Notes: a model not told the origin generated them from the letters alone. A stretch of DNA of 64,000 nt from an uncultured Gemmatimonadales bacterium (GCA_963711915.1 CAVQGA010000019.1:19186-83185), one strand, 5' to 3'. Shown: positions 20,792 through 56,612, counted from the first letter of the stretch. Numbers and translations: made by a program.

Positions 20792-20874
20792 TGCCCGAGG
20801 CGAGAGTCGAACTCGCACGGGGTTGCCCCCGGAGGATTTTGAGTCCTCTGCGTCTGCCATTCCGCCACTCGGGC
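20792..20874 (-). tRNA. tRNA-Leu(CAA): tRNA-Leu, anticodon CAA (type II, normal 14-nt variable arm, A73)
   Basis: Hand-folded minus strand: GCCCGAG-UG-GCGGAAUGGCAGACGC-A-GAGGA-CUCAAAA-UCCUC-C-GGGGGCAACCCCGU-GCGAG-UUCGACU-CUCGC-CUCGGGC-A. CCA is not encoded. Confidence 0.9.
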
Positions 20875-21582: not shown

Positions 21583-21648
21583 GTCATCCTGAGCGAAGCG
21601 AAGGAGACATGACCTAAGGCATACCTCCTTCGCTTCGCTCAGCGAGAC
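21583..21648. repeat. REP/MITE-like palindromic element, copy 1 (66-bp subfamily)
   Basis: GTCATCCTGAGCGAAGCGAAGGAGACATGACC...CCTCCTTCGCTTCGCTCAGCGAGAC. The arms are inverted repeats. Lies downstream of ppa. Confidence 0.8.
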
Positions 21649-29302: not shown

Positions 29303-29403
29303 CGGGACGTGTGGGATTCGAACCCACGGGGGCTACCGGCCTAGACAGCTTTCACCCCGTCGGATTTTGAGTCCGCTGCAATCGGCCACTCTGCCAACGT
29401 CCC
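29303..29403 (-). tRNA. Atypical tRNA gene: anticodon CAA, G73 discriminator, about 32-nt variable region (101 nt without CCA)
   Basis: Hand-folded: GGGACGU-UG-GCAG-AGUGGCCGA-UUGC-A-GCGGA-CUCAAAA-UCCGA-[CGGGGUGAAAGCUGUCUAGGCCGGUAGCCCCC]-GUGGG-UUCGAAU-CCCAC-ACGUCCC-G. U8, G18G19, U33, A37 and the T-loop UUCGAAU are all canonical. Confidence 0.7.
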
Positions 29404-30450: not shown

Positions 30451-30534
30451 TGTCATCCCGAGCGCAGGGAGGGATCTTGCCCGGGAAGGCTCGAACCCCG
30501 GCGGAGCAGATCCCTCGCTCCGCTCGGGATGACA
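30451..30534. repeat. REP/MITE-like palindromic element, copy 2 (84-bp subfamily)
   Basis: TGTCATCCCGAGCGCAGGGAGGGATCT...AGATCCCTCGCTCCGCTCGGGATGACA. Confidence 0.85.
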
Positions 30535-37977: not shown

Positions 37978-38155
37978 AGGAGGACCGGGTGCGCGCGTGG
38001 TGGCAGAGTGGCGCGGGCCGCGGACCACTCTGGAGGGTCGCAAGGACGCCTGGCGCCGTGCGCCCTCCGGGGGAACTCAGATGCCGATGGCTTGCACGCC
38101 TGAGAGAGATGCTAATCAGGAGCAAGCGATCGGCCTAGGCTGCGTGTGACAAGGA

Positions 38156-38220
38156 GTCGTCCTGAGCGGAGCGAAGGAGCCATGACCCGACGCATGCCCC
38201 TCTTCCTGCGCTCCGCGTGG
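38156..38220. repeat. REP/MITE-like element, copy 4 (right arm degenerate)
   Basis: GTCGTCCTGAGCGGAGCGAAGGAGCCATGACC..GCATGCCCC matches the left half of the 66-bp subfamily. Confidence 0.7.
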
Positions 38221-38375
38221 CTCCCACTCCCCCTCGTTGCTAGCTTACCGGCGGCTCACCCAAGGGGGCGCTCATCCAACTCACCTCCGGCCAGGCGCGC
38301 AGAATCTGGCTGCATGCCCAGGGTCTGGACACCACCGAACCCTTCGGCTCCGGCCCGCAGGCCACGCCGGCAGCA

Positions 38376-39410
38376 GTGGCGCACCTGGGCTATTTGCAGA
38401 TCGACACCATCTACGTCATCGAGCGCAGCCATCACCACATCCTCCACACGCGCATCCCTTCGTATCGGCGCGAGCATCTGCATCAGGCACAGAGCATCGA
38501 CAAGACGGTTTTCGAGTATTGGACGCACGCCCTCTCGTACCTGCCGACGGACAGCCTGCGGTTTCATGTGCGCCAGATGCGCCAGGATTGGCAGCGGCAC
38601 GTCGTCTGGTTCGGCCAGGTTTCGAACGCGGATCTGCGCAGAGTGCTGTCGCGCATCCGCAGACACGGCGCGATCACCATTCGCGACATCGACACCGACG
38701 CGCTGGTAGACAAAGACTACGCGTGGGCCAGCCGCAAGCCTTCCAAGCGCGCGCTGGAGGTGGCCTTCTACAAGGGCTTGGTGACCATTAGCCGGCGGGC
38801 TGGCATGCTCAAGACTTATGAGCTCCTGACTCGCCATTTCAGCTGGGACCGTCGGCCACGCGCAGCGACCGCAAGGGAAACGCTCAACTACCTGCTCGAT
38901 CGTGCCCTGCGATCGCAGGGGATCGTGAGTGTGGACTCGATCTGTTATCAGGACGCTCCGCGCAAACCGGCGATGAGGCGCCTGCTGGAAGCGCGAGTCC
39001 GTCGCAGGGAGCTGATACCGGTGCAAGTGGAAGGAGCGGGTCAGTCGCTGCACTGGATCCGTCCGGATGCCCTCGACACCATTCCCGATCCGGAGCGGGA
39101 GGCGATTCATATCCTGTCCCCCTTCGACCCGCTCATCATCCAGCGCAAGCGACTCCGACTCTTCTTCGATTACGAGTATCGCTTCGAAGCGTACGTTCCC
39201 AAGCACAAGCGGGTATTCGGCTATTTCGTATGCCCGGTTCTTATCGGGGATCGGATCGTTGCCGCCCTCGACCTCAAGACCGACCGGCAGCGGCAACAAC
39301 TTCTGGTGCAGCGCTGGCACTGGGTCGGCCGGGGCGCGTCCCACGATCATCGGCAGGGGGTGGAAGCGGCGTTGCACAGGTTCGAGCAGTTTCAGTTGTG
39401 TCGGAGTTAG
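38376..39410 (+). CDS. YcaQ/AlkZ-family (DUF1006) winged-helix DNA glycosylase-like protein
   Basis: GYLQIDTIYVIERSHHHILHTR...FEYWTHALSYLP...KRVFGYFVCPVLIGDRIVAALDLKTDRQ. Family-like sequence (LTSGQARRIWLHAQGL) continues in frame upstream to 38244 with no canonical start. Confidence 0.8.
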   Translation: MAHLGYLQIDTIYVIERSHHHILHTRIPSYRREHLHQAQSIDKTVFEYWTHALSYLPTDSLRFHVRQMRQDWQRHVVWFGQVSNADLRRVLSRIRRHGAITIRDIDTDALVDKDYAWASRKPSKRALEVAFYKGLVTISRRAGMLKTYELLTRHFSWDRRPRAATARETLNYLLDRALRSQGIVSVDSICYQDAPRKPAMRRLLEARVRRRELIPVQVEGAGQSLHWIRPDALDTIPDPEREAIHILSPFDPLIIQRKRLRLFFDYEYRFEAYVPKHKRVFGYFVCPVLIGDRIVAALDLKTDRQRQQLLVQRWHWVGRGASHDHRQGVEAALHRFEQFQLCRS

Positions 39411-39530
39411 ATCGAGCGCTCGCCGGTCGGCGCCGAATAACCGGCATGCGTCCACCCCTGGCCGGCACTTCGGCTGTGGCGGGCAAGACGTCCGCGGTGG
39501 CATGCTGCCGTAGAAAGGGACCGCCCTCCA

Positions 39531-39662
39531 GACGGCCGCACATCAGCTGCAAGCGACCCGCTCCGCGGTCGCCAACAATCGTTCCCTGGATCCAACACCA
39601 CGCGGCGGCGTGCAGCAGAGTCTCGCGCGGTGGCGCTTGGCGGCTACATGCGCTTGTTAGGC
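39531..39662 (-). repeat. attC-like site C (terminal; distal box degenerate)
   Basis: Ends in GTTAGGC (39656-39662). Arms CATCAGCTGCAAGCG / CGCTTGGCGGCTACATGCGC are imperfectly complementary and homologous to sites A, B and D. Confidence 0.55.
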
Positions 39663-39728
39663 GCCAACGCTTCTCAGGTCCAACTGCTCACGATTCGCCG
39701 AAGCTCGACGCGCCGCGCCCGCACCATT

Positions 39729-40082
39729 CTAGAGCACTGGGGCCGGCCCCATGATCCAGAACAACACCGCCAAGCCGCCCACGATGGCCCCCACCGTGCC
39801 CAGCAACACCAACAAACCTTGAGCCACCAGGATCCATCGCGAGTGGGGCACGGCCGCCCGCTGCTCGAGCAGCCCCCAGGCCCCTACCGCACTCGCCACC
39901 AGGACCAGTCCAGCGAGGGGGCCTCGGCGCCAGTCGGTCAGGACCACGGCCATGCCGACCACGATCCCCGCGATCGTAAGGCCGACCAAGAAGCGCTGGC
40001 GGGCATGGGACGCCCAGCCCGTGATCCCATCGTAGACCGACGGGTGGAATGGATCGTTGAAGTGTGGTGGAGAGTGGATCAT
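39729..40082 (-). CDS. Hypothetical membrane protein (cassette ORF, 117 aa, 3 TM)
   Basis: MIHSPPHFNDPF...FLVGLTIAGIVVGMAVVL...LAGLVLVASAVGAWGLL...LLVLLGTVGAIVGGLAVLFWI. ATG 40082 lies 18 nt after the attC-D box. Confidence 0.5.
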   Translation of the reverse strand: MIHSPPHFNDPFHPSVYDGITGWASHARQRFLVGLTIAGIVVGMAVVLTDWRRGPLAGLVLVASAVGAWGLLEQRAAVPHSRWILVAQGLLVLLGTVGAIVGGLAVLFWIMGPAPVL

Positions 40083-40099
40083 GAGGTCTTCCGTTTGGC

Positions 40100-40382
40100 G
40101 TCCAACGAATGGGCGCATCAGGGCGCCCCCGCCGGTCCACCGCTATGAGCGCGCCCTCCCCGGGGCGCCGGTCCACTTGGACATCAAGAAGCTGGGCCGC
40201 TTCCGTCGGGTGGGGCACCGCATCCACGGGGATCACGGCGGGCGCAGCCGCGGCAGTGGTGTGGAGGTTCTGCACATCGCCATCGACGATCGGACGCGCT
40301 TGGCCTATGCGGCGCTCTTCCCCGATGAGTCGGCGGTCAAAGCGGCGGCCTTCCTGAACCTCGCGCACAATTACAGTTAGGC
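40100..40382 (-). repeat. attC-like site D, interrupted by an IS481-family fragment
   Basis: GTCCAACGAATGGGCGCATCAGG at 40100 is homologous to the left arms of A and B, and GTTAGGC lies at 40376-40382. The interior is replaced by a transposase fragment. Confidence 0.55.
40126..40380 (+). pseudogene. Internal fragment of an IS481-family transposase
   Basis: YERALPGAPVHLDIKKLGRFRRVGHRIHGDHGGRSRGSGVEVLHIAIDDRTRLAYAALFPDESAVKAAAFL matches the conserved IS481 catalytic-core start. Both the N- and C-termini are missing. Confidence 0.7.
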
Positions 40383-40419
40383 CGCGGCCCGCACCCTCAC
40401 TCCCGATAGCCGATCCCGT

Positions 40420-41027
40420 TCACGAGCTCCACGATAGCCGCAGCACGCCGGACCTCCGACTCTGGTGCGGTCGCCTCGGGCATCCAGTAGCTGTAGGTGC
40501 GATAGCTTCCGCCTCACGAACTTCCACGACGACACTCCACCCATCGAGCCCCAGTGCCGTGCCGTTTGGGAGCGCGTCTACTCCCAGCGAGTCGAGTGGC
40601 CGCAGGGTGCCTTGCCACGACTGGCCCGCCGCGAGTGTCGCCGTGCACATCTCGTACTGGCCGCGCCGGCGTCGTGGCCCGCATCCCGCTGTCTTGTTCA
40701 AATTGGCATGCAGCTCGCGGTTGCTGATTAGGTTGTGATCGCGGTCCGCATTCGCCTCCGCGGTTCCGTCTGTGGCCCTGCTCCACCAAAGATCTTACTC
40801 CCACGCACCGAGGCACCGTCAGAGCGAATTCTCGTGAACGTCTCCGGTTCGATCAGTCCGAAGCCGACCCAGATCTGGACTTCCCGGTGACCGCTCGGTC
40901 GCTCGCTCCCAGCGTGAAGCGGTTTCACACCTACGACCCGCGCGATCTCGTCGATTCGGTACACGTAATCTTGCGCCCACGCGACCCTCGCGAGCGTGAG
41001 AGTCAAGGCAACGCAAGTGCTTACCAT
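40420..41027 (-). pseudogene. Frameshifted cassette ORF encoding a secreted hypothetical protein
   Basis: Signal peptide MVSTCVALTLTLARVAWAQ in frame 1 (to about 40790). The protein-like continuation ...YEMCTATLAAGQSWQGTLRPLDSLGVDALPNGTALGLDGWSVVVEV is in another frame. Confidence 0.45.
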
Positions 41028-41065
41028 ACCACAAGCCAGAGGAAACCTCCGCGTCCACTGCAGCG

Positions 41066-41255
41066 GCCTAACGGATGGCGCATCAGCTGCAGGCGATCAT
41101 CCGCGCGGCCGCACCGCGGCTCCGCACCGCGGGCAAGCCAGCCACGGTGGCGCTGGTCGCCTGCATGCGGAAGCTGCTCACGATCCTCAACGCGATGGCG
41201 CGCACGGGCACCACCTGACCCACCCCTGCCTGTCGGCTGCATGTGCGGGTTAGGC
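41066..41255 (-). repeat. attC-like site A (190 bp; interior carries an IS110/IS1111-family 3' remnant)
   Basis: GCCTAAC (41066-41072) ... GTTAGGC (41249-41255). The arms TGGCGCATCAGCTGCAGGCGATCAT / CCTGTCGGCTGCATGTGCGGG are complementary with bulges. Confidence 0.6.
41075..41218 (+). pseudogene. C-terminal remnant of an IS110-family transposase
   Basis: ...LRTAGKPATVALVACMRKLLTILNAMARTGTT* matches the conserved IS110/IS1111 C-terminus (AGKP.KVAL.ACMRKLL..LNAM). Confidence 0.6.
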
Positions 41256-41606
41256 GGCCCGGCCGGTGTGCTCGGCGATGGTCGCGCTCAGGTGAGCCGC
41301 GGTGTGTTGGACCTCAGGCCATTCCGGGTGATCTGCGCCCAGATGACCTGCGGCAAGTTCCTGAGTTAACGCGCGACAGAACTCGGCCGCACGGCGCAGC
41401 CGAAAGCGCTCCGCCGTGGCTCGTGGCGCCTCCGCCCCGGCTGCGGTAAGCAACGCCCAGACCCGGAGCCGGATCTCGTCGACAGTGCTCTTGAATTCCG
41501 GTAGGCCGTCAGGCGGAACCTCCCCGGCGTCCAGTCGACTCTCCAGATCCTGGAGGATGATGCGCATTCGTGCGAGTTCCTCTTGCACTGTGGCGGCCAT
41601 CGGCAA
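41250..41606 (-). CDS. Hypothetical helical protein (cassette ORF, 118 aa)
   Basis: MPMAATVQEELARMRIILQDLESRLDAGEVPPDGLPEFKSTVDEIRLRVWALL... The stop TAA lies inside the GCCTAAC box of site A. Confidence 0.5.
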   Translation of the reverse strand: MPMAATVQEELARMRIILQDLESRLDAGEVPPDGLPEFKSTVDEIRLRVWALLTAAGAEAPRATAERFRLRRAAEFCRALTQELAAGHLGADHPEWPEVQHTAAHLSATIAEHTGRAA

Positions 41607-41742
41607 GCCTCCTCGAGAGGAGAAGCAGAAGCGGGCGGCGGTCTGGACTGTCCCGAATCCTACCGACTTCCCGGACGCCTCAAAAGCCTTCGTAGCATGG
41701 CGGTGCGTCCGACGTTATGTGACCAGGCTGAGATGTGGGTCC

Positions 41743-41879
41743 GCCTAACGACTGGCGCATCAGCAGCAGGCGATCATGCCGGCGTCCGCACAAATAGACG
41801 TTCCGCGTCGGCCTCGAGGAGCGGCGCGCCCGCGTAGCGCCGGCCCGTCCGGCCTGTCGGCTGCATGCGCGGGTTAGAC
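41743..41879 (-). repeat. attC-like site B (137 bp, intact)
   Basis: GCCTAAC (41743-41749) ... GTTAGAC (41873-41879). CTAAC/GTTAG, GCGCAT/ATGCGC and CAGC/GCTG pair, with unpaired bases between them. Confidence 0.6.
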
Positions 41880-41916
41880 AGCACGTTGGTACAGTCTCAG
41901 CTGATCGGTAACACTT

Positions 41917-43168
41917 TGTTCTCACCTGATGGGTGACACCTCCATAACCTAGGGGCCTCAGAGGAGGCCCCGATGCCCTGGAGAGTCACGTCACCCATGC
42001 ATGAGCGCCAGCGATTTGTGCTCGACGCCGAGCACAGCCCTGCATCCTTCGCCGAGCTCTGCCGGCGTTACGGCATCAGCCGCAAGACCGGCTACAAGTG
42101 GCTCGAGCGCTATGCCCGCCTCGGGCCCGAGAGCCTTGCCGATCGCTCGCATCGGCCCCAGTGCTGCCCTCACGCCACCGCGCCTGCCCTCATCCGCGAG
42201 ATCCTCCAGCTGCGCAAGTCCTGGCGCTGGGGCGCCCGCAAGCTCCACCAGCTGCTCCTCGACACCCACCCGGCTGACGAGGTCCCCGTCCGATCGACGA
42301 TTCACCGCATCCTCGTCCAGCATGGCCGCGTCCCACGCCGCCGCCGCTCGCAGCGCCGAGCTCATCCGGGCCCGCCGCGGACCCCGATCACCGGCCCGAA
42401 TGCCGTCTGGTCGGTTGACTTCAAAGGCCAGTTCAAGCTGGGCGATGGCCGCTACTGCTATCCGCTCACGGTCCAGGATGTGTACTCCCGGTATCTCCTG
42501 GCCTGCGAGGGCCTCGATGGCCCGCGCCTGCAGCCGACGCAGCGGGTTTTCCGCCGCTTGTTTCGCGAGTCTGGCCTCCCGGCGCGCATCCGCTCCGATA
42601 ACGGCCAGCCGTTCGCCTCGTGCGCGCTGGGTCGCCTCTCCCAGCTCAGCGTCTGGTGGCTCCAGCTCGGCGTCCGCCCCGAGCTCATCGAGCCCGCCTC
42701 ACCCCAGCAGAATGGCCGCCACGAACGGATGCATCGCGATCTCAAGGCCGAGACCACGCGGCCGGCGGCCGGCTCCCTCCGCGCCCAGCAGCGCCGCTTC
42801 GACGCCTTTCGGCGTACCTTCAACGAGGTGCGCCCCCACGAGGCGCTCGGGCAGCGCCGGCCCGCTACGCTCTACACGCCGTCCGACCGCCTCTATGTGC
42901 CGCGGCGGCCGCCGATCACCTACCCCGAGCACTTCGAGGTCCGGCGCGTCTCCACCAACGGCGGCATTCGCTGGAACCGGCGCTGGGTAAACGTCTCACA
43001 CATCCTGGCCACGCTGCCGGTCGGCCTCGAGCCCCTCACGACCGGGACGTGGAACGTCTTCTTCGGTCCCATCCACCTCGGGGGGCTCGATGAACACGAC
43101 TATCGCATTCACGACCGCCGAGGTCGAATCCAGCGCGAACGCCACCTGTCACCCATCAGGTGAGTACA
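41917..43168 (+). mobile_element. IS481-family insertion sequence (1252 bp)
   Basis: IRL TGTTCTCACCTGATGGGTGACA (41917-41938) and IRR TGTCACCCATCAGGTGAGTACA (43147-43168), 21/22 complementary, with TGT...ACA termini. A second, degenerate copy of each IR lies just outside (41895-41913; 43171-43189). Confidence 0.85.
41973..43163 (+). CDS. IS481-family transposase (HTH + rve integrase core)
   Basis: FAELCRRYGISRKTGYKWLERY; WSVDFKGQF..YPLTVQDVYSRYLLA..IRSDNGQPF...PQQNGRHERMHRDLK (DDE). Confidence 0.92.
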   Translation: MPWRVTSPMHERQRFVLDAEHSPASFAELCRRYGISRKTGYKWLERYARLGPESLADRSHRPQCCPHATAPALIREILQLRKSWRWGARKLHQLLLDTHPADEVPVRSTIHRILVQHGRVPRRRRSQRRAHPGPPRTPITGPNAVWSVDFKGQFKLGDGRYCYPLTVQDVYSRYLLACEGLDGPRLQPTQRVFRRLFRESGLPARIRSDNGQPFASCALGRLSQLSVWWLQLGVRPELIEPASPQQNGRHERMHRDLKAETTRPAAGSLRAQQRRFDAFRRTFNEVRPHEALGQRRPATLYTPSDRLYVPRRPPITYPEHFEVRRVSTNGGIRWNRRWVNVSHILATLPVGLEPLTTGTWNVFFGPIHLGGLDEHDYRIHDRRGRIQRERHLSPIR

Positions 43169-43197
43169 CCTGTCACCCATCAGTTGAGACGTTCAGT

Positions 43198-43500
43198 TCA
43201 CCGGGGATTAACTGCAATCCAGGCTGCCACGAGTTTGCGATAGTCTAGGAACGTGAGTTCGGCTGGCCGTAGACCTTCCCGTTTACACATGAACGGCAGT
43301 TGCCTTCTGAACTCGACGTACCGCGCTGCAAGAGTCGAAGGCCCGGAATCTTGCTGTGAGAGGGTAGGTTGGCCTGGAGCCGGTTCCGCACTGCCGTAAG
43401 TGCCTGACTGACCTCGTTCGCGTGGGCACGAATATCCTGCCCTGAGATGTCGGAGCAGAAGATCTGATACCTGTAGCGATCCCGGTCCAAGATCAGGCAT
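43198..43500 (-). pseudogene. Frameshifted hypothetical cassette ORF
   Basis: Protein-like stretches lie in two frames: DRDRYRYQIFCSDISGQDIRAHANEVSQALTAVRNRLQ, then YVEFRRQLPFMCKREGLRPAELTFLDYRKLVAAWIAVNP. Separated from its attC (site B) by the IS481 element. Confidence 0.4.
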
Positions 43501-43505
43501 GACGA

Positions 43506-43571
43506 GTCATCCTGAGCGCAGCGAAGGAGCCATGACCGTAGGCATGCCCCCTTCGCTTCGCTCAGGGTGAC
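43506..43571. repeat. REP/MITE-like element, copy 5 (66-bp subfamily)
   Basis: GTCATCCTGAGCGCAGCGAAGGAGCCATGACC...CCCCCTTCGCTTCGCTCAGGGTGAC. Confidence 0.85.
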
Positions 43572-43607
43572 TCCCCGACGCAAGCAGCCGCGCCGCGCCG
43601 GCGGTGG

Positions 43608-44474
43608 TCATGCCTGGGGCCGGGCGTCCATGCCGAAGTCGGCTTCGATGCGATCGTACCACGCGGCGTCGTCGAGGCCGCCCATCGCCACCCACGCCTC
43701 GTCACTCATCCCCCGGCGCCAGCCCAGGAACGGCTCGGCGTCCGGCCCCACCGGATGCCGGAGCTGCGCGGTGTCGCCCACGGCGATCTCGAGAATCTTG
43801 TCGGCGACCACCGCAGGGGACACCGGAGACTTGAGCGCCGTGGTGAACAGGGCCGCGATTCGGCGCTGCTGGGAATACGGGGTCGGGGCTCGCGCCGTCC
43901 CGATGTTCCTGGCCATCTGGGTGTCGATGATCCCCGGCTCGACAATGGCCACCCGGATGTTGAACGCCTTGCCCTCCTGGGCCAGGCACTCGCTCAGCGC
44001 TTCCAGCGCGAACTTGGACGCAGTGTACGCGGCCATCGGCGCCACGGCGACGTGTCCCGCGACCGAGGCGACGTTGATGATGCATCCACTCCGCCGCTCT
44101 CGCATCGCCGGCAGGACGGCCTGGCAGCACCGGATGACCCCGAAGTAATTCGTTTCCATGACCGCGCGGAACTCCGCCAGCGGCAGCTCCTCGACCGACC
44201 CCAGGCGCTCGATGCCGGCGTTGTTGACCAGCACGTCGATCGGGCCGATCTCGCGGTCGATCCTCGCCATCGCGTCGCGCACCGAGGCATCGGTGTCCAC
44301 ATCCATCGGGATCACGGTGATGGCGAGACGCTCCCGCGCGGCGGCTTCCGCCAGCGCGGGGGCGCCGGCCGGGTTGCGCATGGTGGCGGCCACACGGTGG
44401 CCGGCCCGGGCACACGCGAGCGCCGTGGCCAGGCCGATGCCGGTGCTGCTCCCGGTGATCAGGACGGTCGTCAT
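43608..44474 (-). CDS. SDR-family oxidoreductase (classical)
   Basis: VLITGSSTGIGLATA, NNAG, YTASKFALEALSECLAQE. Confidence 0.88.
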   Translation of the reverse strand: MTTVLITGSSTGIGLATALACARAGHRVAATMRNPAGAPALAEAAARERLAITVIPMDVDTDASVRDAMARIDREIGPIDVLVNNAGIERLGSVEELPLAEFRAVMETNYFGVIRCCQAVLPAMRERRSGCIINVASVAGHVAVAPMAAYTASKFALEALSECLAQEGKAFNIRVAIVEPGIIDTQMARNIGTARAPTPYSQQRRIAALFTTALKSPVSPAVVADKILEIAVGDTAQLRHPVGPDAEPFLGWRRGMSDEAWVAMGGLDDAAWYDRIEADFGMDARPQA

Positions 44475-44764
44475 GTGGTTCGCTCCAGGGGATGGGGGTC
44501 GAACACTAAGGATGCATCGCTAGCGGACGGGCCGCTGTTCCCGGGCCTGTCGCCTGGGGGCGAGGGTTCGGCCGCAGAGGGCGCGCTCCACCAACTTACG
44601 TGCCTTCCCGCGTTCCGGGAGAGGAGTCGCCCGGCAGACAGATCGGTCCTGCGCTGATGAATTAACTTGCGACATTGGCCCCCGATTCGGCCCGCCGCGT
44701 CGCGCGCCCGCGCGCCCGCCCGGCGACTGGAGACCAGCTTTTTACAGTCGGGGAGCTGTCATCT

Positions 44765-44863
44765 GTCATCCTGAGCGGAGCGAAGGATCGGCCCGGGCAT
44801 GCGAGTGAGCCTCAGGCTCCCACTCGGTCCACCGACCCGATCCTTCGCTTCGCTCAGGATGAC
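44765..44863. repeat. REP/MITE-like element, copy 6 (99 bp)
   Basis: GTCATCCTGAGCGGAGCGAAGGATCGG...CCGATCCTTCGCTTCGCTCAGGATGAC. Confidence 0.85.
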
Positions 44864-44890
44864 TCGGACCACCACGAAGGAGACCCATCC

Positions 44891-45691
44891 ATGACCACGA
44901 CTACCCAGACGACGACCCACCGCACCGGCACCCGCGACGAATGGCTCGCCGCCCGGCTCGCGTTGCTCGAGGAAGAGAAGGCGCTGACTCACCGGGGCGA
45001 CGAGGTGGCCCGCCGCCGCCAGGCGCTGCCGTGGGTCCGGGTGGACAAGCCGTACCGGTTCGAGACCGAGGAGGGCCCCGCCGCGCTGGCCGACCTCTTC
45101 CGCGGCCGCTCGCAGCTCCTGGTCTACCACTTCATGTTCGGTCCCGACTACACGGCGGGATGCCCGGCCTGCTCGTCGATCGCGGACGGGTTCAATCAGT
45201 CGGTCCCCCACCTGGCCCACCACGACGTGATGTTCTGGGCGATCTCGCGGGCGCCGCTGGCCAAGCTCCAGGCCTACCGGCGGCGGATGGGGTGGAGCTT
45301 CCCCTGGGCGTCCTCCGGCGGCAGCGACTTCAACCTCGACTTCCACGCCGGCCTCACCGAGGAGCAGCAGCGCACGGGCAATTTCGAGTACAACTACCGC
45401 CCGGGCACCCCCGCCCCGCGTGCCAACGAGACCGGCACCACCGGCGCGTCGGCGCCGCCGGGAGCGGAGTTCGCGGCGATGTCGGGCGTGGACTGGGCGA
45501 CGTACATCCGCGAAGAGCCCGGGATGAGCGCCTTCGCCCTCGAGGACGGCGTGGTCTACCACACCTACTCGGCCTACCAGCGCGGCCTGGACACGCTCTG
45601 GCCCATGTACCAGTGGCTCGACCGGGCGCCGCTCGGCCGGAACGAGACCGGCCTCTGGTTCCGGCGGCGGGACGAGTACCCGAAAGGGTGA
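44891..45691 (+). CDS. DUF899 thioredoxin-like family protein
   Basis: RDEWLAARLALLEEEKALTHRGDEVARRRQALPWVRVDKPYRFETEEGP..LADLFRGRSQLLVYHFMFGPDY..GCPACS. ATG 44891 is preceded by GAAGGAG; the upstream part of the track ORF is REP-derived. Confidence 0.8.
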   Translation: MTTTTQTTTHRTGTRDEWLAARLALLEEEKALTHRGDEVARRRQALPWVRVDKPYRFETEEGPAALADLFRGRSQLLVYHFMFGPDYTAGCPACSSIADGFNQSVPHLAHHDVMFWAISRAPLAKLQAYRRRMGWSFPWASSGGSDFNLDFHAGLTEEQQRTGNFEYNYRPGTPAPRANETGTTGASAPPGAEFAAMSGVDWATYIREEPGMSAFALEDGVVYHTYSAYQRGLDTLWPMYQWLDRAPLGRNETGLWFRRRDEYPKG

Positions 45692-45799
45692 GGCGAGCGC
45701 GGGATCTGTCTCTGCGGTCCAGAGAAGTGAGCATCCGCGAAGTGAGGCCCGCCGGATAATCCGAGTCAGCTCGACTCGGCGAAACGCCCCAGCCGGCGA

Positions 45800-47023
45800 T
45801 CAAGGGCGACTGAACACCGCCCCGTGCGGGATCGCCTTCGCGTTCCCGCCATGGGGCCAGGTCTTGTCATCCATCCGGAAGCCGGGCTCGGTCGCCCCTT
45901 GCTCCCGGAAACGCTCATCGAGCGACAGCCGCCCGGTCGCGGAGTCGAAGCGCGCGATCATCACGCGATGCTTGAGGCTGCCGTAGCCGGTGATCACCAC
46001 TCGTCGCTGGTCCTCCGAAATGGCGATCCAGTGCGGCACGTCGTCCGGGCCGAGCGTGACGCGGCCCGCCTCATGCGGAGCGGAGGGATCGCTGATGTCG
46101 AGGCTCACGACGGCGCTCCAGGCGGGAACGGTCACCAGGTAGTAGTGCCCCGAGATGACCGGGATGGCGCAGTACGTCCCCGCCTTCCGGGGGAACGACG
46201 CCACCAGGCGGGCCGATGGTGCGTCGCTCTCCAGGCCCTCCATTAGGTACAGCCCGCAGGCGAAGGTGGAGACCAGGACGGTCCGGCCGTCGGCCAGGAC
46301 CCGCGGCTCCGCGGTCATCATCGACTCATCGCCGGCCGGGCCGTTGGGCAGCGTGATGGTGTGGAGCGGCGTCAGGTCGGAGAGCCGCCAGATCTGGAGC
46401 TGGCGCGAGGCGGGGGACGATCCGTGCATGTCGGTCGTGGTCGTCACGATCCGGTCGAGCCTGGGGACGATGCCGGCGCTGTAGACCCGTGTCTCCGGAT
46501 CGAGGCCCGGAGTGTCGGCCGAACCGGAGCGCACCGGCTGCCCGGCGGGCGTCAATTCGACGAGCCCGCCGGGCGTCATGCCGGCCGGCCCATGCCGCAT
46601 CTGGAAGGTCGCGAGGACGTGGCCGTCGGGCAGCCGGAGGAACGAGTGCGGGTGGCTGTAGCCCTCGACGTCGCCGAACTGCCCGGCGAGGCGGGGATGG
46701 CCGGGGTTGGTCAAGTCGAAGATGAAGCTCTCGCCCGAGCCGAAGCCGTTGGCGAAGAGCTGCCGGTCGGCCGGCAGCTCGTGCTCGGTATGGTGCGGCC
46801 CGTTATGGAGGCCCGGCACCGGGAGCGTGGTGACGAGACGGCCGTAGCGGGCGGAGTCCTCGCTGACGTCGAGGACGGCGAGGAAGTCGGGCTTCGTGGA
46901 GTCGGCGGATCCGGTCCACAGATAGAGATACGTGGGTGCGGGCGCGGGCCTGGCCGGTGGGCGGGGGCCGCAGCCGAGCAGTGAGAGGAGGGCTGCCGCC
47001 AGAACGCTTTTGATCGTCGTCAT
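45800..47023 (-). CDS. Beta-propeller lipoprotein, selenium-binding protein (SBP56)/methanethiol-oxidase-like
   Basis: Lipobox LLSLLGCG. YLYLWTGSAD...DFLAVLDVSEDSARYGRLV..LPVPGLHNGPHHTEH resembles the SBP56 N-terminus. Family call is tentative. Confidence 0.5.
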   Translation of the reverse strand: MTTIKSVLAAALLSLLGCGPRPPARPAPAPTYLYLWTGSADSTKPDFLAVLDVSEDSARYGRLVTTLPVPGLHNGPHHTEHELPADRQLFANGFGSGESFIFDLTNPGHPRLAGQFGDVEGYSHPHSFLRLPDGHVLATFQMRHGPAGMTPGGLVELTPAGQPVRSGSADTPGLDPETRVYSAGIVPRLDRIVTTTTDMHGSSPASRQLQIWRLSDLTPLHTITLPNGPAGDESMMTAEPRVLADGRTVLVSTFACGLYLMEGLESDAPSARLVASFPRKAGTYCAIPVISGHYYLVTVPAWSAVVSLDISDPSAPHEAGRVTLGPDDVPHWIAISEDQRRVVITGYGSLKHRVMIARFDSATGRLSLDERFREQGATEPGFRMDDKTWPHGGNAKAIPHGAVFSRP

Positions 47024-47065
47024 GCCGTTCCTCAGCCTGGGGTTGCCGCACAAACGGAAGCCCGG

Positions 47066-47221
47066 TCAGCGTCGCTTCCGCTTGGCGGCCTTGGCGCCCT
47101 GCTTTCCCAGCGCCGCGCGGGTCTTCTTCGGAAGTCGGGAGATGGTCTTCTTCGTCCTGGCGGCCTTGGCGGCCCGCTTGATGTTCTTTCGTGCCGCCGC
47201 CTTCTGCTTTGCCGTCGCCAT
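47066..47221 (-). CDS. Small Lys/Ala/Arg-rich basic protein (51 aa, histone H1-like composition)
   Basis: Below the ORF-track size cutoff. Own translation gives MATAKQKAAARKNIKRAAKAARTKKTISRLPKKTRAALGKQGAKAAKRKRR, preceded by GGAGGA at 5-nt spacing. Confidence 0.5.
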   Translation of the reverse strand: MATAKQKAAARKNIKRAAKAARTKKTISRLPKKTRAALGKQGAKAAKRKRR

Positions 47222-47289
47222 TGGTCCTCCATTGTAAGGGATTCACCTGGTGTTCGCGCAACGAGCCGCGCATCAGCCACGGGCCACGC

Positions 47290-47727
47290 TCAGACCGCGC
47301 CGTCGAGGTGCTCGCGCAGCGGCCGGTCGTCCCGCACCATGTGATCGCTGATATGGAACACGTCCGCCAGTCGCTCGTGCTCCAGGGCCTCCGCTCGATC
47401 CAGCATCCGGCCCAGCAGCGCGATCCCGTTCCAGGGCGACTCGGCCGCATCCACCACCGTGACCTGGTACTCCGACTCGGCGGACCGCAGTCGAAGCGCG
47501 ATGGCGACGCGGTCCCAGGGCCTCGAGCCCTCGCTCCAGTCGCCGACCGATACGACCGCGTCGACTACGCGCGGCTCATGCCCCTCTCCGAAGCGCGCGT
47601 AGTAAATGGCGTAGGCATCCCCGTCTTCGTAGACGAAGCGCGTCAGCGACCTGGTGAGGCCACCGCAGCACTCACACTTCACGGCGCTGGGTTCGGAGAA
47701 TTCAATGGTCAGCATGAAGGCTCGCAC
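47290..47727 (-). CDS. Hypothetical protein
   Basis: 145 aa with protein-like composition (LTIEFSEPSAVKCECCGGLTRSLTRFVYEDGDAYAIYYARF...). No family recognised. Confidence 0.5.
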   Translation of the reverse strand: MRAFMLTIEFSEPSAVKCECCGGLTRSLTRFVYEDGDAYAIYYARFGEGHEPRVVDAVVSVGDWSEGSRPWDRVAIALRLRSAESEYQVTVVDAAESPWNGIALLGRMLDRAEALEHERLADVFHISDHMVRDDRPLREHLDGAV

Positions 47728-47980
47728 GGAACGAGGTCCGGGACCTCAATCGCCCGTGACATGCTCGGGGCCCTGCGCCCGGCCCGCCACGGGCGCCACC
47801 AGCAGGACGATACCGAGCAGGGCTCTCGACAATTCCGGGTCCCTGTGCCCTGCAGCGCCCAGGTCCGCCGGTGCATCATGCCGTCAGGCGATTTCCTCGA
47901 GAGCCCAACCGCCAGGCAACGCCCGAGCGGAGTCTTGCGACTGTCCGGCCGATCGGCTGCGCCGGCTGCCCGGCTCTGGG

Positions 47981-48190
47981 TCAGCCGCCATTTCCGGGGC
48001 GCTCCTGCCTGGCGCGCCGCACGGCCTGCATCCATGACACTCCTGCAGTCATACTCAGTCCGATGATCGTCAGCAGGTGCACCAGTCTGAGCGGCTCACC
48101 AAGCCGCGCCATGCCGGTGGCGACGGCAAGCATGAGCGAGAGACCGGCGAGCACAAGCGCGGGTATGGCAGATCGAGTACTGGGTCTCAT
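47981..48190 (-). CDS. Hypothetical small 2-TM membrane protein
   Basis: MRPSTRSAIPALVLAGLSLMLAVATGMARL...LLTIIGLSMTAGVSWM. Confidence 0.35.
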   Translation of the reverse strand: MRPSTRSAIPALVLAGLSLMLAVATGMARLGEPLRLVHLLTIIGLSMTAGVSWMQAVRRARQERPGNGG

Positions 48191-48275
48191 CTGGTGACCT
48201 GGGTTAGCTGCGTAACGACCGGCCAAGCGGCTGCAACCCACCGCGTGCCCGCGTGCGATGTCGACGCATCCGTGA

Positions 48276-48827
48276 CTAGGTGGCGCGCCGCGAGACCTGC
48301 CCGTGTTTCGCCTGATTAAAGGCCTTGGAATGACCTCGTGGAATGGTCAAGGTCTGCCACTCACTCCCTGCCCAATGCTTTGCCAACAGTACGATCTGCC
48401 CGACGTGGTACGCCAAGTGACTGAGGTGACGGGTGAGCGCTTGGGCAACCGTGTGTGGTTCAGCGCGAATGTAGATCGTTCGCCGCAAGTCGCCGGGCGT
48501 CAACGCTTCCACGGTCGCGGCAAGCAGATCCCATGCGGTGGTCCATCGATCCAACAGGTGCGCGCGTGTGTCGTGCGAGTGAACCTCAAACTCACCGTCC
48601 CGGTCACGGTCGGGCTTCTCGCCATCGGAGGTCAGAAAGTTTGTGCATCGGGACAGGAGATTGCCACTTATATGCTTGACGGTAATCGCGATGCTGTTGG
48701 TCTCTGGATCGAGCGCCTTGGCAAAGTCATGGTCACCGACCTGCGCCATGGCCTGCTCCGCGGTGCTGCGAAGCTTGGCAAACTGGGTCCGCATGCCGAC
48801 CAGATACTCGTGGTGGAAATCAGACAT
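48276..48827 (-). CDS. DinB-superfamily protein (DUF1572-like)
   Basis: MSDFHHEYLVGMRTQFAKLRSTAEQAM...NSIAITVKHISGNLLSR...LSHLAYHVGQIVLLAKHW. Confidence 0.7.
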   Translation of the reverse strand: MSDFHHEYLVGMRTQFAKLRSTAEQAMAQVGDHDFAKALDPETNSIAITVKHISGNLLSRCTNFLTSDGEKPDRDRDGEFEVHSHDTRAHLLDRWTTAWDLLAATVEALTPGDLRRTIYIRAEPHTVAQALTRHLSHLAYHVGQIVLLAKHWAGSEWQTLTIPRGHSKAFNQAKHGQVSRRAT

Positions 48828-49333
48828 GACTCAACCTCGGACGGCGTAACCGGGATGCCTGCACGTCCATCTCACCCCTATCCGCATTCACGCCCTGCCG
48901 GAGTCTCCGCGCCATCCACGGCCACTGGTCCAACCGCGTCAGGACTGCTCCGCTCTTCCCGCGGCCGCTCCCCAGCCCAGGGGCCACCTGCTTTGACCAT
49001 CCGCAAATCTGTCAGGCCGGCGCCGCGAGGCGGCCAGTCTAATATGACTTCATCGGGGGTGGCCCGTATAGCTTCGCAAGCAACTCCTTGCCGCTCTGGG
49101 CGTGGAGTGGCCGCGACCTGGCGAAGCGCGCCGGCGCGGGAGGCCGAGCTGGGGGATTGGGAGGGGAGCCATGTCGAGCTCGACCTCACAGGCGGTCGTC
49201 AGAATGGTCAACGTGTCTTTTTCACTCAGGACAGTTTCGACCGCTGGCCTCTGGAGAGGACGGAATGGCTTGCCTGAAGCGGTGCTTGGGAAGGCGTCCG
49301 GCCCTCCAGGTGGCAACTGCGCGACTCTGCGCC

Positions 49334-49371
49334 AGAAAAGGCAAGAGCCGCCCGCGGTTCACGGGCGGCTC
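49334..49371 (-). terminator. Intrinsic terminator after the first OMP gene
   Basis: Minus strand GAGCCGCCCG-UGAACCG-CGGGCGGCUC followed by UUGCCUUUUCU. Confidence 0.7.
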
Positions 49372-49390
49372 CTGGACGCTGGGAGGAGGC

Positions 49391-49963
49391 TCAGACGCCG
49401 CCGCCACCGCCCCCAAACCGAACCCCCACGCTGATCGGAATGAAGTGGAAGTCGGAGCCGGTCACGAACACGTTGTGGAACCGACCTTCGACGAAGAATG
49501 ACGTGGCCGACGAGCCGAAGTTGAAGCCGGCGCCGGCATTGACGCCGAACTTGGTCTGGGAGGCGGAAGGGAAATTGTCAGGCTTCGCCTTGACGTTGTA
49601 AACCCCACCTCCGCCGATCAGATACGGGCGGAACTTCGTGTCGGGCGAGACACTGAACTCGTACACGACGTTCGCCGTGCCGTTGATGATCTGCTCCTTG
49701 CCGTCAAAGCCGGTCTTGGCCGCATCGAACTTCAGTTGCTGATACATCCCATCGATTCTGAACCCCACGGGGCTCGAGGCGGGCTTGAACTGGACCAAGG
49801 CCAGGCCGTGCCACCCGGTCTTGAGCCCGGTGCCGGACGACCCGCTGGGGATCGTGACGCCGCCGCCGAGACCGAATTGGACGGGCGTCTGCGCGGCGAG
49901 CATTGTCGCACCGACGCTGAGGCCCAGGCCAATGGAGAGAGCAGCTTTCGCGAAGCCCTTCAT
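49391..49963 (-). CDS. Outer-membrane beta-barrel protein (OmpW/OmpA_membrane-like small porin family)
   Basis: Signal MKGFAKAALSIGLGLSVGATMLAAQ, alternating beta-strand pattern, C-terminal ...IPISVGVRFGGGGGGV. ATG 49963 is preceded by GGAGGAAG. Confidence 0.7.
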   Translation of the reverse strand: MKGFAKAALSIGLGLSVGATMLAAQTPVQFGLGGGVTIPSGSSGTGLKTGWHGLALVQFKPASSPVGFRIDGMYQQLKFDAAKTGFDGKEQIINGTANVVYEFSVSPDTKFRPYLIGGGGVYNVKAKPDNFPSASQTKFGVNAGAGFNFGSSATSFFVEGRFHNVFVTGSDFHFIPISVGVRFGGGGGGV

Positions 49964-50171
49964 ACTTCCTCCTTCTGACGATGCCGGTTCGGATTGAGCA
50001 GGGGAAAGACCGATGCGAGTCAGCCGGATGCAGGATCCGGCCGGCGGTAACCTGTGGGGGCAATAGTAGTACCACATTTCCCAGATACAAGATGTCGCGG
50101 AGGAACGTTTGGACCGCGTGCCTCCTCCCTACCGCACATCAGCCGCCCCGGGGGGGCGGCCGATGGTGAGA

Positions 50172-50206
50172 GTCACCCTGAGCGCAGCGAACGGGCCCAG
50201 GGTGAC
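50172..50206. repeat. REP-related short hairpin, copy 7
   Basis: GTCACCCTG-AGCGCAGCGAACGGGC-CAGGGTGAC. Confidence 0.6.
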
Positions 50207-50232
50207 TCGTCGGGAGGTTTCGCAACGCACTC

Positions 50233-50793
50233 TCAGTGACCGCCGAAGCGAATCCCGACCGTGATCGGAATGAACGTCGCGTCCTTGCCGGACGTGAACA
50301 CGTCGTGGAACCGTCCCTCCACGAACAGTCCGGCGCTTCCCGCCTTGAAATCGAACCCCGCGCCGCCATTGACACCGAACTTGGTGGTCGATCCCGTCGT
50401 CGAGAAGTTGCCGCCGACGGTGCTGCTGCCCGTGCCCTTGAAGTTGTACACCCCGCCGCCGGCGATCAGATAGGGCCGGAAGCGACTCTCCTCGGACGTC
50501 TTGAACTTGTACACGACATTACCGGTCCCGATCAGGAAGCGCTCGTGACCCGAGAACCCGTCGAACGGATACTGGTGATATTGGCCATCGATCTGAAATC
50601 CAACCGGCGATCCCGTCGGCACGAACGAGACCGCTGCCAGACCCATCCAGCCAAGCTTGGTGGCGTCGTTGAACGTGCCCAGCGGATTCGCGATCCCGCC
50701 GCCCAACGAGAACTCGGCCCCCTGGGCGTGCAGCGCCGATGCGCTCACCATCAGGCCCAGAGCGAGTGCCGCAACGGCCTTCGGAACCCTCAT
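50233..50793 (-). CDS. Outer-membrane beta-barrel protein, paralog of 49391-49963
   Basis: Signal MRVPKAVAALALGLMVSASALHAQ. Colinear with the neighbouring OMP (...RPYLIAGGGVYNFK..., ...FIPITVGIRFGGH). Strong AAAAGGAGGAGG RBS. Confidence 0.7.
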   Translation of the reverse strand: MRVPKAVAALALGLMVSASALHAQGAEFSLGGGIANPLGTFNDATKLGWMGLAAVSFVPTGSPVGFQIDGQYHQYPFDGFSGHERFLIGTGNVVYKFKTSEESRFRPYLIAGGGVYNFKGTGSSTVGGNFSTTGSTTKFGVNGGAGFDFKAGSAGLFVEGRFHDVFTSGKDATFIPITVGIRFGGH

Positions 50794-50917
50794 ACCGCCC
50801 CTCCTCCTTTTAGGTAGAACGGGACACCGGGTTCGATGCCCGCGCGCGTGGACCCGCTTGCAATCGGCGGGCCGCAGGCAAACTAGCTTCGGCCGCGCAC
50901 GCGCCATGTGACCAGGG

Positions 50918-51106
50918 TCACACCGGCGGGCCATCCCGTCGCTGAAGGAGGCGGACGATCAGCGAGCCGGCGAGGAGCGCGATCGCGGCCCAGGTGAGGC
51001 GCCGGTCCTCGAGCGCGACCGCCAGCAGCGCCGCCACGAAGCCGGCCAGCGACAGCCCGACGCGGAGCCCGGTGAACCGCCTCGAGAAATCGGGGAGGAC
51101 GCTCAT
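50918..51106 (-). CDS. Hypothetical small 2-TM membrane protein
   Basis: MSVLPDFSRRFTGLRVGLSLAGFVAALLAVALEDRRLTWAAIALLAGSLIVRLL. ATGA overlap with the enoyl-CoA hydratase stop. Confidence 0.45.
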   Translation of the reverse strand: MSVLPDFSRRFTGLRVGLSLAGFVAALLAVALEDRRLTWAAIALLAGSLIVRLLQRRDGPPV

Positions 51107-56530: not shown

Positions 56531-56612
56531 GTCATCCCGAGCGGAAGCGAGGGATCTACTCGCCCGGGTTCGAACTCGGCCCAGCAAGATCCCTCGCTCC
56601 GCTCGGGATGAC
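56531..56612. repeat. REP/MITE-like element, copy 8 (same subfamily as copy 2)
   Basis: GTCATCCCGAGCGGAAGCGAGGGATCT...AGATCCCTCGCTCCGCTCGGGATGAC. Confidence 0.85.

Follow-up and report, generated by a model that had tools for sequence, protein, structure and literature searches.

Evidence for a partly decayed integron gene-cassette array without its integrase on a probable Gemmatimonadales chromosome

The 64-kb stretch of DNA analysed here (the window) very probably carries an integron gene-cassette array without its integrase (CALIN), on what is probably a Gemmatimonadales chromosome. The array is genuine and partly decayed, an ordinary CALIN of the known class from a little-studied phylum, the Gemmatimonadota. 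A preceding sequence-only reading had taken its repeats for integron attC sites, and that reading is supported by the occurrence of the same repeats in tandem arrays, by integron integrases (IntI) next to such arrays in relatives, by attC geometry, and by the cross-detection of class 1 attC sites; of the checks suggested with it, those carried out all spoke for it. A CALIN is defined by at least two attC sites with no integron integrase within 4 kb; the window holds three sites supported by our covariance model (CM R1, below) and no intI in 64 kb. Searches by tblastn with IntI1 and a Gemmatimonadales IntI as queries gave no match in the whole 64 kb, even at E<=10, so that the window does not hold a complete integron with intI, attI and promoter beside the array, and the CALIN label is right because the window is without an integrase. 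The place where intI would be expected, at 43.6-44.6 kb (-), is taken up by a REP element (43503-43575) and a short-chain dehydrogenase (SDR) gene (43608-44474, Pfam adh_short), in agreement with the earlier description.

attC sites in the window

CM R1 derives from 110 sites, all of them in other genomes, and the whole window was searched with it with filters off. The sites are as follows.

39527-39662, + strand: attC site C, the distal (last) site of the array; CM R1 54.5 bits, E 5e-13; nhmmer E 8e-12
40100-40382, + strand: remnant of attC site D; left box GTCCAAC and left arm at 40100-40125, terminal GTTAGGC at 40376-40382
41066-41255, + strand: attC site A; both arms intact, boxes GCCTAAC/GTTAGGC; nhmmer full length, E 1e-12
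41743-41879, + strand: attC site B; intact, 137 nt; R' GCCTAAC, R'' GTTAGAC; CM R1 114.2 bits, E 5e-29

Four related sites had been proposed. While B, C and A are family members by CM or nhmmer, D is a fragment only, and neither method detected it as a site in a search of the whole window. Its left arm AACGAATGGGCGCATCAG belongs to a motif matched four times in the window (0.06 expected), its interior (about 40120-40365) is an IS481-family transposase fragment (NCBIfam IS481, E 3e-13), and on its right side GTTAGGC alone survives; site D is a remnant. Site A was matched by CM R1 at 41066-41177 (30.2 bits), and in place of its centre (about 41108-41218) stand the final ~35 codons of an IS110-family transposase, a C-terminal fragment recognised with E 4e-7. 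Both conserved arms occur as exact copies twice in the window, in A and B, against none expected in shuffles.

All sites had been described as starting with an RYYYAAC box, which holds for A, B and D but not for C, which begins 4 nt earlier than proposed (39527) and whose R' box has degenerated to TCCAGAC with loss of the AAC triplet; its R'' box is GTTAGGC, and the site is probably dead. With the exception of C, the end boxes follow RYYYAAC...GTTRRRY and retain the triplet. The R'' box of A is a perfect complement of the box of B, and that of D of the box of A. The predicted recombined (bottom) strand of the sites is the + strand of the window, and measured at the AA|C crossover points the cassettes are 573, 966 and 677 bp long, close to the ~575, 965 and 680 bp first estimated.

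A repeat family in arrays of Gemmatimonadales relatives

Sites B, C and A belong to a ~137-nt repeat family with consensus boxes GCCTAAC...GTTAGGC and hundreds of copies in Gemmatimonadales MAGs. A genome scan matched 119 8-kb blocks, mostly from such MAGs, and nhmmer on 855 kb of related loci returned 431 matches, arranged in same-orientation tandem arrays: among the 76 loci with at least two matches, 73 carry them on a single strand and only 3 on mixed strands. The median site spacing is 681 bp, with up to 12 copies per 8 kb, and the arrays reach tens of kb (e.g., CAVWRM010000001.1 3.680-3.704 Mb and CAVSPJ010000003.1). At 192 of 283 sites a top-strand ORF, on the strand opposite the pattern strand, stops close to the box, as against 95 for the pattern strand, and in 15 cases the TAA of GCCTAAC serves as the stop codon.

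In at least four loci (L114, L054, L026 and L060) the array adjoins a bona fide integron integrase, 53-56% identical to IntI1 and of constant geometry, the 3' end of intI facing the array and the gene reading in the same direction as the cassette ORFs. The integrases of L114 and L054 score 422 and 423 bits on NCBIfam TIGR02249 (cutoff 265), and intI genes or fragments were also found in L026, L060, L042, L051, L100, L019 and L015. A search for further copies of the arms and for intI had been proposed from the sequence, and relatives supplied both; the association of the family with an integrase is seen in relatives and not in the window. In the related arrays, the R'' box of a site fits the box of the right neighbour better than that of its own site (24 cases against 7; p = 0.003) and better than that of the left neighbour (27 against 8; p = 0.002). 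This preference for the neighbour is a cassette-junction signature.

These data bear on the possibility that the repeats are the termini of an IS110/IS1111-type element, or else a MITE descended from such an element, which we regard as highly improbable. Site A does enclose the C-terminal fragment of an IS110 transposase, the right arm GTCGGCTGCATGCGC is so like the IS110 codons GTCGCCTGCATGCGG that the CM took that coding sequence as the right arm, and locus L078 holds a full IS110 copy ending directly beside a site. However, that copy lies outside the adjacent site, and at no place in the data was an intact IS found framed by two arms; the copies follow one another in tandem on one strand, at cassette spacing and with one ORF each; the arrays adjoin integron integrases; the pairing of end boxes with the neighbouring site is unexpected of a transposon end or a MITE; and the model cross-detects class 1 attC. 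The sequence-only reading had named arms recurring as IS110/IS1111 termini, together with the lack of an attC model match, as what would refute it; across the 855 kb of related loci this is not what the arms are, the matches standing in co-oriented arrays without a transposase between arms, and the IS-end or MITE explanation is largely refuted.

Hairpin structure

The attC reading is further supported by structure. In a hairpin of 24 pairs, 96.3% of cells are paired, compared with 19-32% in slid controls, and compensatory changes are seen at columns 28/136 (37 sequences) and 29/135 (25 sequences). Judged from these alignments, a predicted imperfect hairpin with R and L boxes is conserved as structure, with support from the compensatory changes. 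In attC sites, the extrahelical bases at position 16 and at 23/24 are separated by a 6-bp stem and belong to the arm that faces the AAC triplet (Nivina et al., 2016; PMC5027507). Read from the 3' end of the + strand, the present family shows C at 16 and T at 23 as bulged bases, with GTCGGC in between; the bulged bases remarked on earlier are therefore at canonical places, with the 6-bp stem and on the arm opposite the triplet. The base at 16 is C in 257 of 260 sites, where the usual first base is G; since the attC of blaVIM-2 likewise has C at 16, this is a tolerated variant. The attC sites of mobile integrons have a bottom strand that is more stable and enriched in purines, and neither was found in the present family: mean fold energy is -34.8 kcal/mol for the predicted bottom strand and -35.3 for the other, 47 of 122 sites have the more stable fold on the bottom strand, and the composition of that strand (C 0.37, G 0.31) is not purine-rich.

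A host palindrome or terminator family of the REP/BIME type, with no link to integrons, could also produce intergenic hairpins after ORFs, as the sites are, and in this GC-rich DNA single sites fold with no better energy than shuffled sequence does. This explanation is nevertheless hardly tenable, because the true REP family of the genome differs from the repeats in sequence and is a separate, dispersed palindrome with 11 matches across the window, occurring as inverted pairs, whereas the attC-like family keeps to a single region and a single direction, has RYYYAAC/GTTRRRY boxes and extrahelical bases at canonical positions, and is tied to IntI in relatives.

Cassettes and insertion sequences

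Within this attC array, the window fits the tandem pattern of co-oriented sites and ORFs, with the one minus-strand ORF per successive site that had been noted at the outset.

39729-40082, - strand: cassette ORF c4; 117 aa, hydrophobic, GC3 0.85
40383-41065, - strand: cassette c3; coding region split into three overlapping ORFs (40420-40701, 40514-40816, 40728-41027)
41250-41600, - strand: cassette ORF c2; 116 aa, stop codon supplied by the TAA within the R'' box of site A
41888-43196, + strand: intact IS481-family IS; transposase 41973-43163, inverted repeats
43197-43502, - strand: remnant of cassette c1; ORF 43198-43500, GC3 0.49, frames broken
43503-43575, no strand: REP-like palindromic element of the host, at the expected attC place of an SDR cassette

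Searches in Pfam matched no family to c4, c3 or c2, and profile searches matched none to the c1 remnant. The ORF c4 starts at 40082, 17 nt from the D box, and the stop codon of c2 does fall in the GCCTAAC box as TAA, both much as first described. Homologous ORFs of c2 sit in cassettes of L099 (37% identity, E 2.5e-22) and L010. Damage had been claimed for two of the four ORFs, and two were found broken: c3 is either frameshifted or a pseudogene, and the c1 ORF (43198-43500), given its GC3 of 0.49 and broken frames, is probably a pseudogene. From its sequence, c2, between sites B and A, alone still looks mobilisable, and would require IntI in trans.

Three IS-derived sequences lie in the array, as the sequence-only reading had it: the IS481 fragment in D, the IS110 C-terminal fragment in A, and the intact IS481-family element, whose transposase matches Pfam rve, HTH and LZ_Tnp_IS481 and scores 214 bits on NCBIfam IS481. 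The intact element is inserted 8 nt beyond the R'' box of site B, between c1 and the attC of c1.

As a separate observation, the position of the IS481-family element is always 7-8 nt outside an attC site.

Extent and origin of the array

The array probably reaches past 43583, and eroded attC relics suggest that it once extended to about 48 kb.

43608-44474, - strand: short-chain dehydrogenase (SDR) gene; Pfam adh_short
44497-44574, + strand: possible short degenerate attC upstream of the SDR gene; GTCGAAC...GTTCGGC, complementary boxes
47256-47285, + strand: attC left-arm relic GCGCAACGAGCCGCGCATCAGCC, directly adjoining the stop codon of ORF 47290-47727(-)
47859-47961, + strand: attC relic; CM R1 15.6 bits, E 0.015, model positions 18-127

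An SDR homologue, 83% identical, sits as a cassette inside an attC array in L027, and the gene in the window is probably a former cassette. The stretch 44497-44574 is put forward as a degenerate attC only tentatively: its right-arm similarity is 65% and its fold pairs both ends (z -1.7), and CM R1 missed it in the whole-window search. The relic at 47859-47961, just upstream of the stop codon of ORF 47981-48241(-), comprises the centre and inner right arm without L and R boxes.

Two routes to such an array were considered. Insertion of cassettes off target at a secondary site, by an IntI encoded elsewhere in the genome and with no decay of a resident integron, would correspond to mechanism (i) of Cury for CALINs, as PMC8618304 summarises it, and the distal end of site C, G|TCTGGA and not G|TTRRRY, is possible at a non-canonical target. 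We consider this route unlikely, given several cassettes, three IS-derived sequences, broken ORFs, attC relics to about 48 kb with the SDR gene (a cassette elsewhere) lying among them, and a GC content that is atypically low throughout the whole 38-51 kb stretch. The cassettes, IS sequences, broken ORFs, relics and SDR gene together better fit an old, long array than a recent off-target insertion. Other samples with this array are 99.8-99.96% identical over it, and no variation in cassette content was seen at the locus because the only other samples holding the array are near-identical.

As we infer, the array most probably arose when part of a sedentary chromosomal integron eroded or was rearranged. 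Each cassette consists of one minus-strand ORF and, after it, an attC of the lineage-specific ~137-nt family. From the known integron mechanism, the + strand as single-stranded DNA would fold into an imperfect hairpin of R box (GCCTAAC/GTTAGGC), asymmetric spacer, L box (GCGCAT/ATGCGC), bulged C at 16, 6-bp stem, bulged T at 23 and a long variable top. By analogy, the tyrosine recombinase IntI would cut between A and C of the 5' box, leading to cassette exchange. In relatives, intI lies upstream of the cassettes and reads in the same direction, in the so-called inverted integrase layout. In the window, the integrase side is gone and the array is in decay: B is intact, A retains its arms around what remains of an IS110 sequence, an IS481 fragment has destroyed D, C is without its AAC triplet, two cassette ORFs are broken, and an IS481-family element stands beside B.

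Comparison with known attC sites and integrons

In 75 kb of class 1 integron plasmids, the top matches of CM R1 were the attC sites of blaVIM-2, aadA2, aadA16, aac(6')-Ib, aadB and gcuF, and all its matches there are on the bottom strand; Rfam holds no attC family. The present sites share with those of class 1 cassettes (blaVIM-2, aadA2, aadB, aac(6')-Ib) the box order, the extrahelical positions 16 and 23 with 6-bp spacing, and a common segment (...AGCCGAC... / GTCGGCT...). They differ in length, class 1 sites being 57-72 nt with a short top against ~137 nt, and lack the G at 16 and the purine-rich, more stable bottom strand of most class 1 attC.

In their length, strong within-lineage similarity, arrays of tens of kb in relatives, and extrahelical bases on the arm facing the AAC triplet, the sites resemble those of sedentary chromosomal integrons, of which the Vibrio cholerae repeats (VCR, ~130 nt) are an example. 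The sequences are unrelated, however, and the present family has two extrahelical bases (C16, T23), as in attCaadA7, where VCR have three. Unlike in VCR-type integrons, intI in the relatives reads in the same direction as the cassettes. Chromosomal integrons with an inverted integrase have reportedly been described, for example in Treponema denticola; this layout is matched by the relatives L114, L054, L026 and L060 only, the window being without intI.

The IS remnants in the array, and an intact IS at a fixed position and orientation relative to attC, recall the mobile elements that target attC, namely the IS1111-attC group and the group IIC-attC introns. The present element is instead a DDE IS481-family IS, unlike the DEDD IS1111-attC elements or the IIC-attC introns, and lies 7-8 nt outside attC, whereas those elements lie within the site.

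The closest likeness in kind is to the CALIN class (2016), as described in PMC8618304: at least two co-oriented attC sites at cassette spacing with no intI nearby, cassettes mostly of unknown function, and signs of decay and IS insertion. The present array differs from the class as described there in its host phylum, the Gemmatimonadota, and in that it probably continues as eroded relics.

Architecture of the window array

The region that a sequence-only reading had described as a gene-cassette array of the CALIN type (a cluster of attC sites without an integron integrase) is supported by our analysis as an integron cassette array without integrase, and as an ordinary case of a known class. 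No intI gene is present in the entire 64-kb window, so that the label CALIN applies as defined by Cury et al. (given in PMC8618304), and Gemmatimonadota are already listed among the integron-bearing phyla (PMC8618304), so that arrays of this kind are known. A covariance model of sites from other genomes (R1), trained on an alignment (A1) of 110 sites from which the window sites were excluded and run without filters over the entire window, recovered three of the four proposed sites.

Features of the array, read from high to low coordinates, the direction of the cassettes (ORFs c1-c4 on the minus strand)
43197-43502, minus strand: c1, cassette remnant with a poor coding signal
41888-43196: intact IS481-family element
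41743-41879: attC site B; R1 114.2 bits, E 5e-29
41250-41600, minus strand: ORF of c2, its stop codon being the TAA of the A box
41066-41255: attC site A, both arms preserved, flanking the final ~35 codons of an IS110 transposase; R1 30.2 bits at 41066-41177
between A and D, minus strand: c3, broken into three frames
40100-40382: remnant of site D, with an IS481 fragment; no R1 match
39729-40082, minus strand: ORF of c4
39527-39662: attC site C, 5' box now TCCAGAC; R1 54.5 bits, E 5e-13

Site A was found at full length (41066-41255) by nhmmer (E 1e-12). The arms TGGCGCATCAGCnGCAGGCGATCAT and CCTGTCGGCTGCATGnGCGGGTTAG each occur as two exact copies in the window (69.6% G+C), at A and B, where shuffles expect 0, and C is a divergent member whose arms are 85 nt apart, as in B. 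For the left-arm motif AACG-N3-6-GCRCATCAG the window contains four matches where 0.06 are expected: those at D, A and B, plus one not anticipated, at 47260. The earlier claim of four related sites with conserved arms therefore stands for A, B and C but not for D, a remnant of ~25 nt of left arm and the terminal GTTAGGC; similarly, the proposed RYYYAAC/GTTRRRY boxes hold as the family consensus GCCTAAC...GTTAGGC and fail at the 5' box of C. Cassettes measured from crossover to crossover are 677, 966 and 573 bp long, close to the 680, 965 and 575 bp first estimated, and the c2 stop codon within GCCTAAC and the three IS-derived sequences (the intact IS481-family element, the IS110 fragment in A and the IS481 fragment in D) were likewise read correctly. 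Rfam, which holds no attC family, returned only two tRNAs over the window at gathering thresholds (minus strand, 20792-20874 and 29303-29403).

Related arrays and integrases

The right arm GGCTRCATGYGCKKGTTAG, scanned against one genome per species, matched at least 119 blocks of 8 kb, mostly from Gemmatimonadales MAGs, and many of the blocks listed contain 3-10 copies on the same strand; the blocks listed do not include the source genome. A profile of the site detected 431 copies in 855 kb of the blocks listed, with a maximum of 12 per block; strands were mixed in 3 of the 76 listed blocks with two or more copies, and the spacing between copies had a median of 681 bp (interquartile range 554-972 bp). 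When adjacent blocks of the same contigs are included, the arrays reach tens of kb.

At array ends, tblastn with an IntI1 query (100% identical to annotated IntI1) revealed integrase homologues 53-56% identical to IntI1, or fragments of them. Those of the related loci L114 and L054 score 422 and 423 bits with the NCBIfam "integron integrase" model TIGR02249 (cutoff 265). Together with L026 and L060, these loci share a geometry in which the 3' end of intI points toward the array and intI and the cassette ORFs are read in one direction, which is the "inverted integrase" arrangement; in L114 a GTTAGGC follows ~70 nt past the intI stop, with the first ORF and attC coming after it. The position held by intI in these relatives is occupied in the window by a host REP element and an SDR gene, on the side where the integrase had been expected.

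Given a crossover inside the box, one expects the 3' end box (R'') to be complementary to its neighbour's 5' box and not to that of its own site. In the related arrays R'' pairs better with the right neighbour than with its own box (24 vs 7, p = 0.003) and better with the right than with the left neighbour (27 vs 8, p = 0.002), which argues against a MITE or REP origin, since neither would be expected to show such pairing. It is very improbable that the repeats belong to the host REP family, the true REP family being a different, dispersed, inverted-pair repeat. That palindromic family (core GTCATCCTGAGCGnAGCGAAGGA, often in inverted pairs) has 11 matches in the window against 0 expected, with copies at 21583-21648, 30452-30533, 38156-38178, 43506-43571, 44765-44863, 50172-50194 and 56590-56612.

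That the repeats are the ends of IS110/IS1111 elements, or a MITE, can hardly be maintained either: the array, integrase and junction evidence is all contrary, no transposase lies between two arms, and a full IS110 copy in the related locus L078 lies outside the neighbouring site. That element (reverse strand; 221 bits with NCBIfam IS110) abuts the attC 5' box with its 3' end, its transposase ORF stopping ~20 nt before the left box, and over 115 nt the DNA encoding its transposase C-terminus matches the fragment in site A at 90% identity. The codons for VACMRK in the IS110 transposase, GTCGCCTGCATGCGG, are so like the attC right arm GTCGGCTGCATGCGC (41145-41169 vs 41845-41869 and 39628-39652) that the covariance model took them for the right arm when aligning site A; the likeness may be due to chance or tied to the arrival of the IS fragment in A.

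Homologues of c2 are found in cassettes of two related loci (L099 and L010), while tblastx searches of the related loci with c1, c3 and c4 yielded low-complexity noise only. Other contigs with cassette c2 itself were only near-identical copies of the window array. Two short Logan contigs, L120 (ERR11596060) and L121 (SRR26546168), both ending inside site B, carry the segment corresponding to window 39288-41872 at 99.8-99.96% identity; this unchanged array in two other sequencing runs indicates that the organism recurs in other samples.

Structure and strand of the sites

A hand-drawn structure of 24 pairs leaves 96.3% of cells paired, against 19-32% with slid partners, and compensatory changes occur at two pairs, in 37 and 25 sequences. 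The plus-strand consensus is GCCTAAC-GAnnn-GCGCAT-CAGC-T-G-CRRGC ... GCYYG-(T)-CG-GCTG-(C)-ATGCGC-KK-GTTAGGC. According to Nivina et al. (2016; PMC5027507), the AAC triplet sits in the 5' box of the bottom strand of attC, while the extrahelical bases are on the facing arm, at positions 16 and 23/24, with a 6-bp stem in between. In our consensus, numbering from the plus-strand 3' end places a bulged C at 16 and a bulged T at 23, likewise 6 bp apart, and on this structural model the plus strand of the window is therefore the bottom strand, in agreement with the minus-strand ORFs and with the bottom-strand matches to class 1 attC sites. The attC architecture first proposed, bulged bases included, is thereby borne out. 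In the relatives, an ORF end adjoins the box on the cassette-ORF strand at 192 of 283 sites and on the other strand at 95 of 283, the TAA of GCCTAAC serving as stop codon in 15 cases.

Position 16 is C rather than G in 257 of 260 sites. When the two strands were compared, the bottom strand was neither purine-rich nor more stable, and the expected bottom-strand bias in fold energy was absent. In DNA this rich in G+C, folds of single sequences were no better than those of shuffled sequence and are therefore uninformative.

Extent, erosion and origin of the array

An 83%-identical homologue of the SDR gene (43608-44474) forms one of the cassettes of an attC array in the related locus L027 (592-4702), and the SDR gene was probably once a cassette itself; a REP-like copy occupies the expected place of its attC. 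Just upstream, at 44497-44574, a short hairpin with complementary boxes GTCGAAC/GTTCGGC might be a short degenerate attC-like site. Two relics lie further out: at 47256-47285 a left arm only, adjoining the stop of ORF 47290-47727 (minus), and at 47859-47961 a centre and inner right arm (partial R1 match, 15.6 bits, E 0.015), just upstream of the stop of ORF 47981-48241 (minus). These relics suggest that the cassette array once reached ~48.3 kb, and we infer that a longer array has eroded, of which the one first recognized is the best-preserved end. The array appears to sit in a variable island, 38000-51000: G+C content there is 0.59-0.73 (mostly <0.70), against ~0.74-0.78 in adjacent core genes, and among the small minus-strand ORFs are three of 145, 86 and 183 aa, the longest encoding a DUF1572/DinB protein.

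The present state most likely arose through loss or rearrangement of the integrase end; a second scenario, in which the cassettes were placed by off-target insertion, appears unlikely. Close homologues of the flanking AlkZ gene, examined for an empty site, proved to lie in unrelated contexts. This AlkZ/YcaQ-like DNA glycosylase gene (38241-39441), with ~100 nt upstream, shares 92-95% DNA identity with the metagenome contigs L134 (9901-11028) and L135 (9865-11065), where its neighbours are completely different and attC sites are lacking, and Terriglobales MAGs are likewise named as sources of homologues with >80% amino-acid identity; the gene resembles a single-gene unit that has recently been mobile. 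The window presents a decaying array and serves mainly to illustrate how CALINs are eroded by inserted IS elements, REP elements and point decay.

An IS481-family element beside attC

The most promising lead is the IS481-family element. In the window (41888-43196) and in ten loci from ten MAGs (L010, L011, L014, L025, L050, L065, L068, L069, L072 and L074), these elements sit between a cassette ORF and the attC of that cassette, and each of the 11 left ends is found 7-8 nt outside the R'' box (GTTAGRC end), in one orientation. Because the loci were selected for attC content, 11 of 11 is no measure of exclusivity to attC; such sampling does not account for the fixed distance of 7-8 nt. Two subfamilies, ~66% identical, are represented, and no target-site duplication could be made out. 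On this positional evidence the chances seem even that the family is a lineage of DDE insertion sequences, so far undescribed, that inserts site-specifically next to attC. Our literature search for attC-targeting elements returned only IS1111-attC elements and group IIC-attC introns; the IS481-family element would, if so, be a third kind, one that parts cassette ORFs from their attC sites and adds to the decay of arrays.

Comparison with known integrons

Gemmatimonadota are common in soil. The published accounts consulted list integrons for this phylum without describing them; the attC family of the Gemmatimonadales, its strand polarity and the layout of its chromosomal integrons are now documented. 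A MAFFT alignment (A2) of nine class 1 attC sites misplaced the 3' arms of long sites, and R1 was used instead for the reciprocal test. In 75 kb of plasmid DNA with class 1 integrons, it matched best the attC sites of blaVIM-2 (21.1 bits, E 6e-4), aadA2, aadA16, aac(6')-Ib, aadB and gcuF, all on the strand opposite the cassette genes, that is, the bottom strand. The blaVIM-2 site has C at position 16, like the Gemmatimonadales family. The rules drawn from attC sites of mobile integrons are a G at position 16 and a more stable, purine-rich bottom strand, and the Gemmatimonadales family departs from both; the canonical geometry of the extrahelical bases is kept, yet the G16 and purine-skew rules known from clinical integrons are broken, which bears on the generality of these rules.
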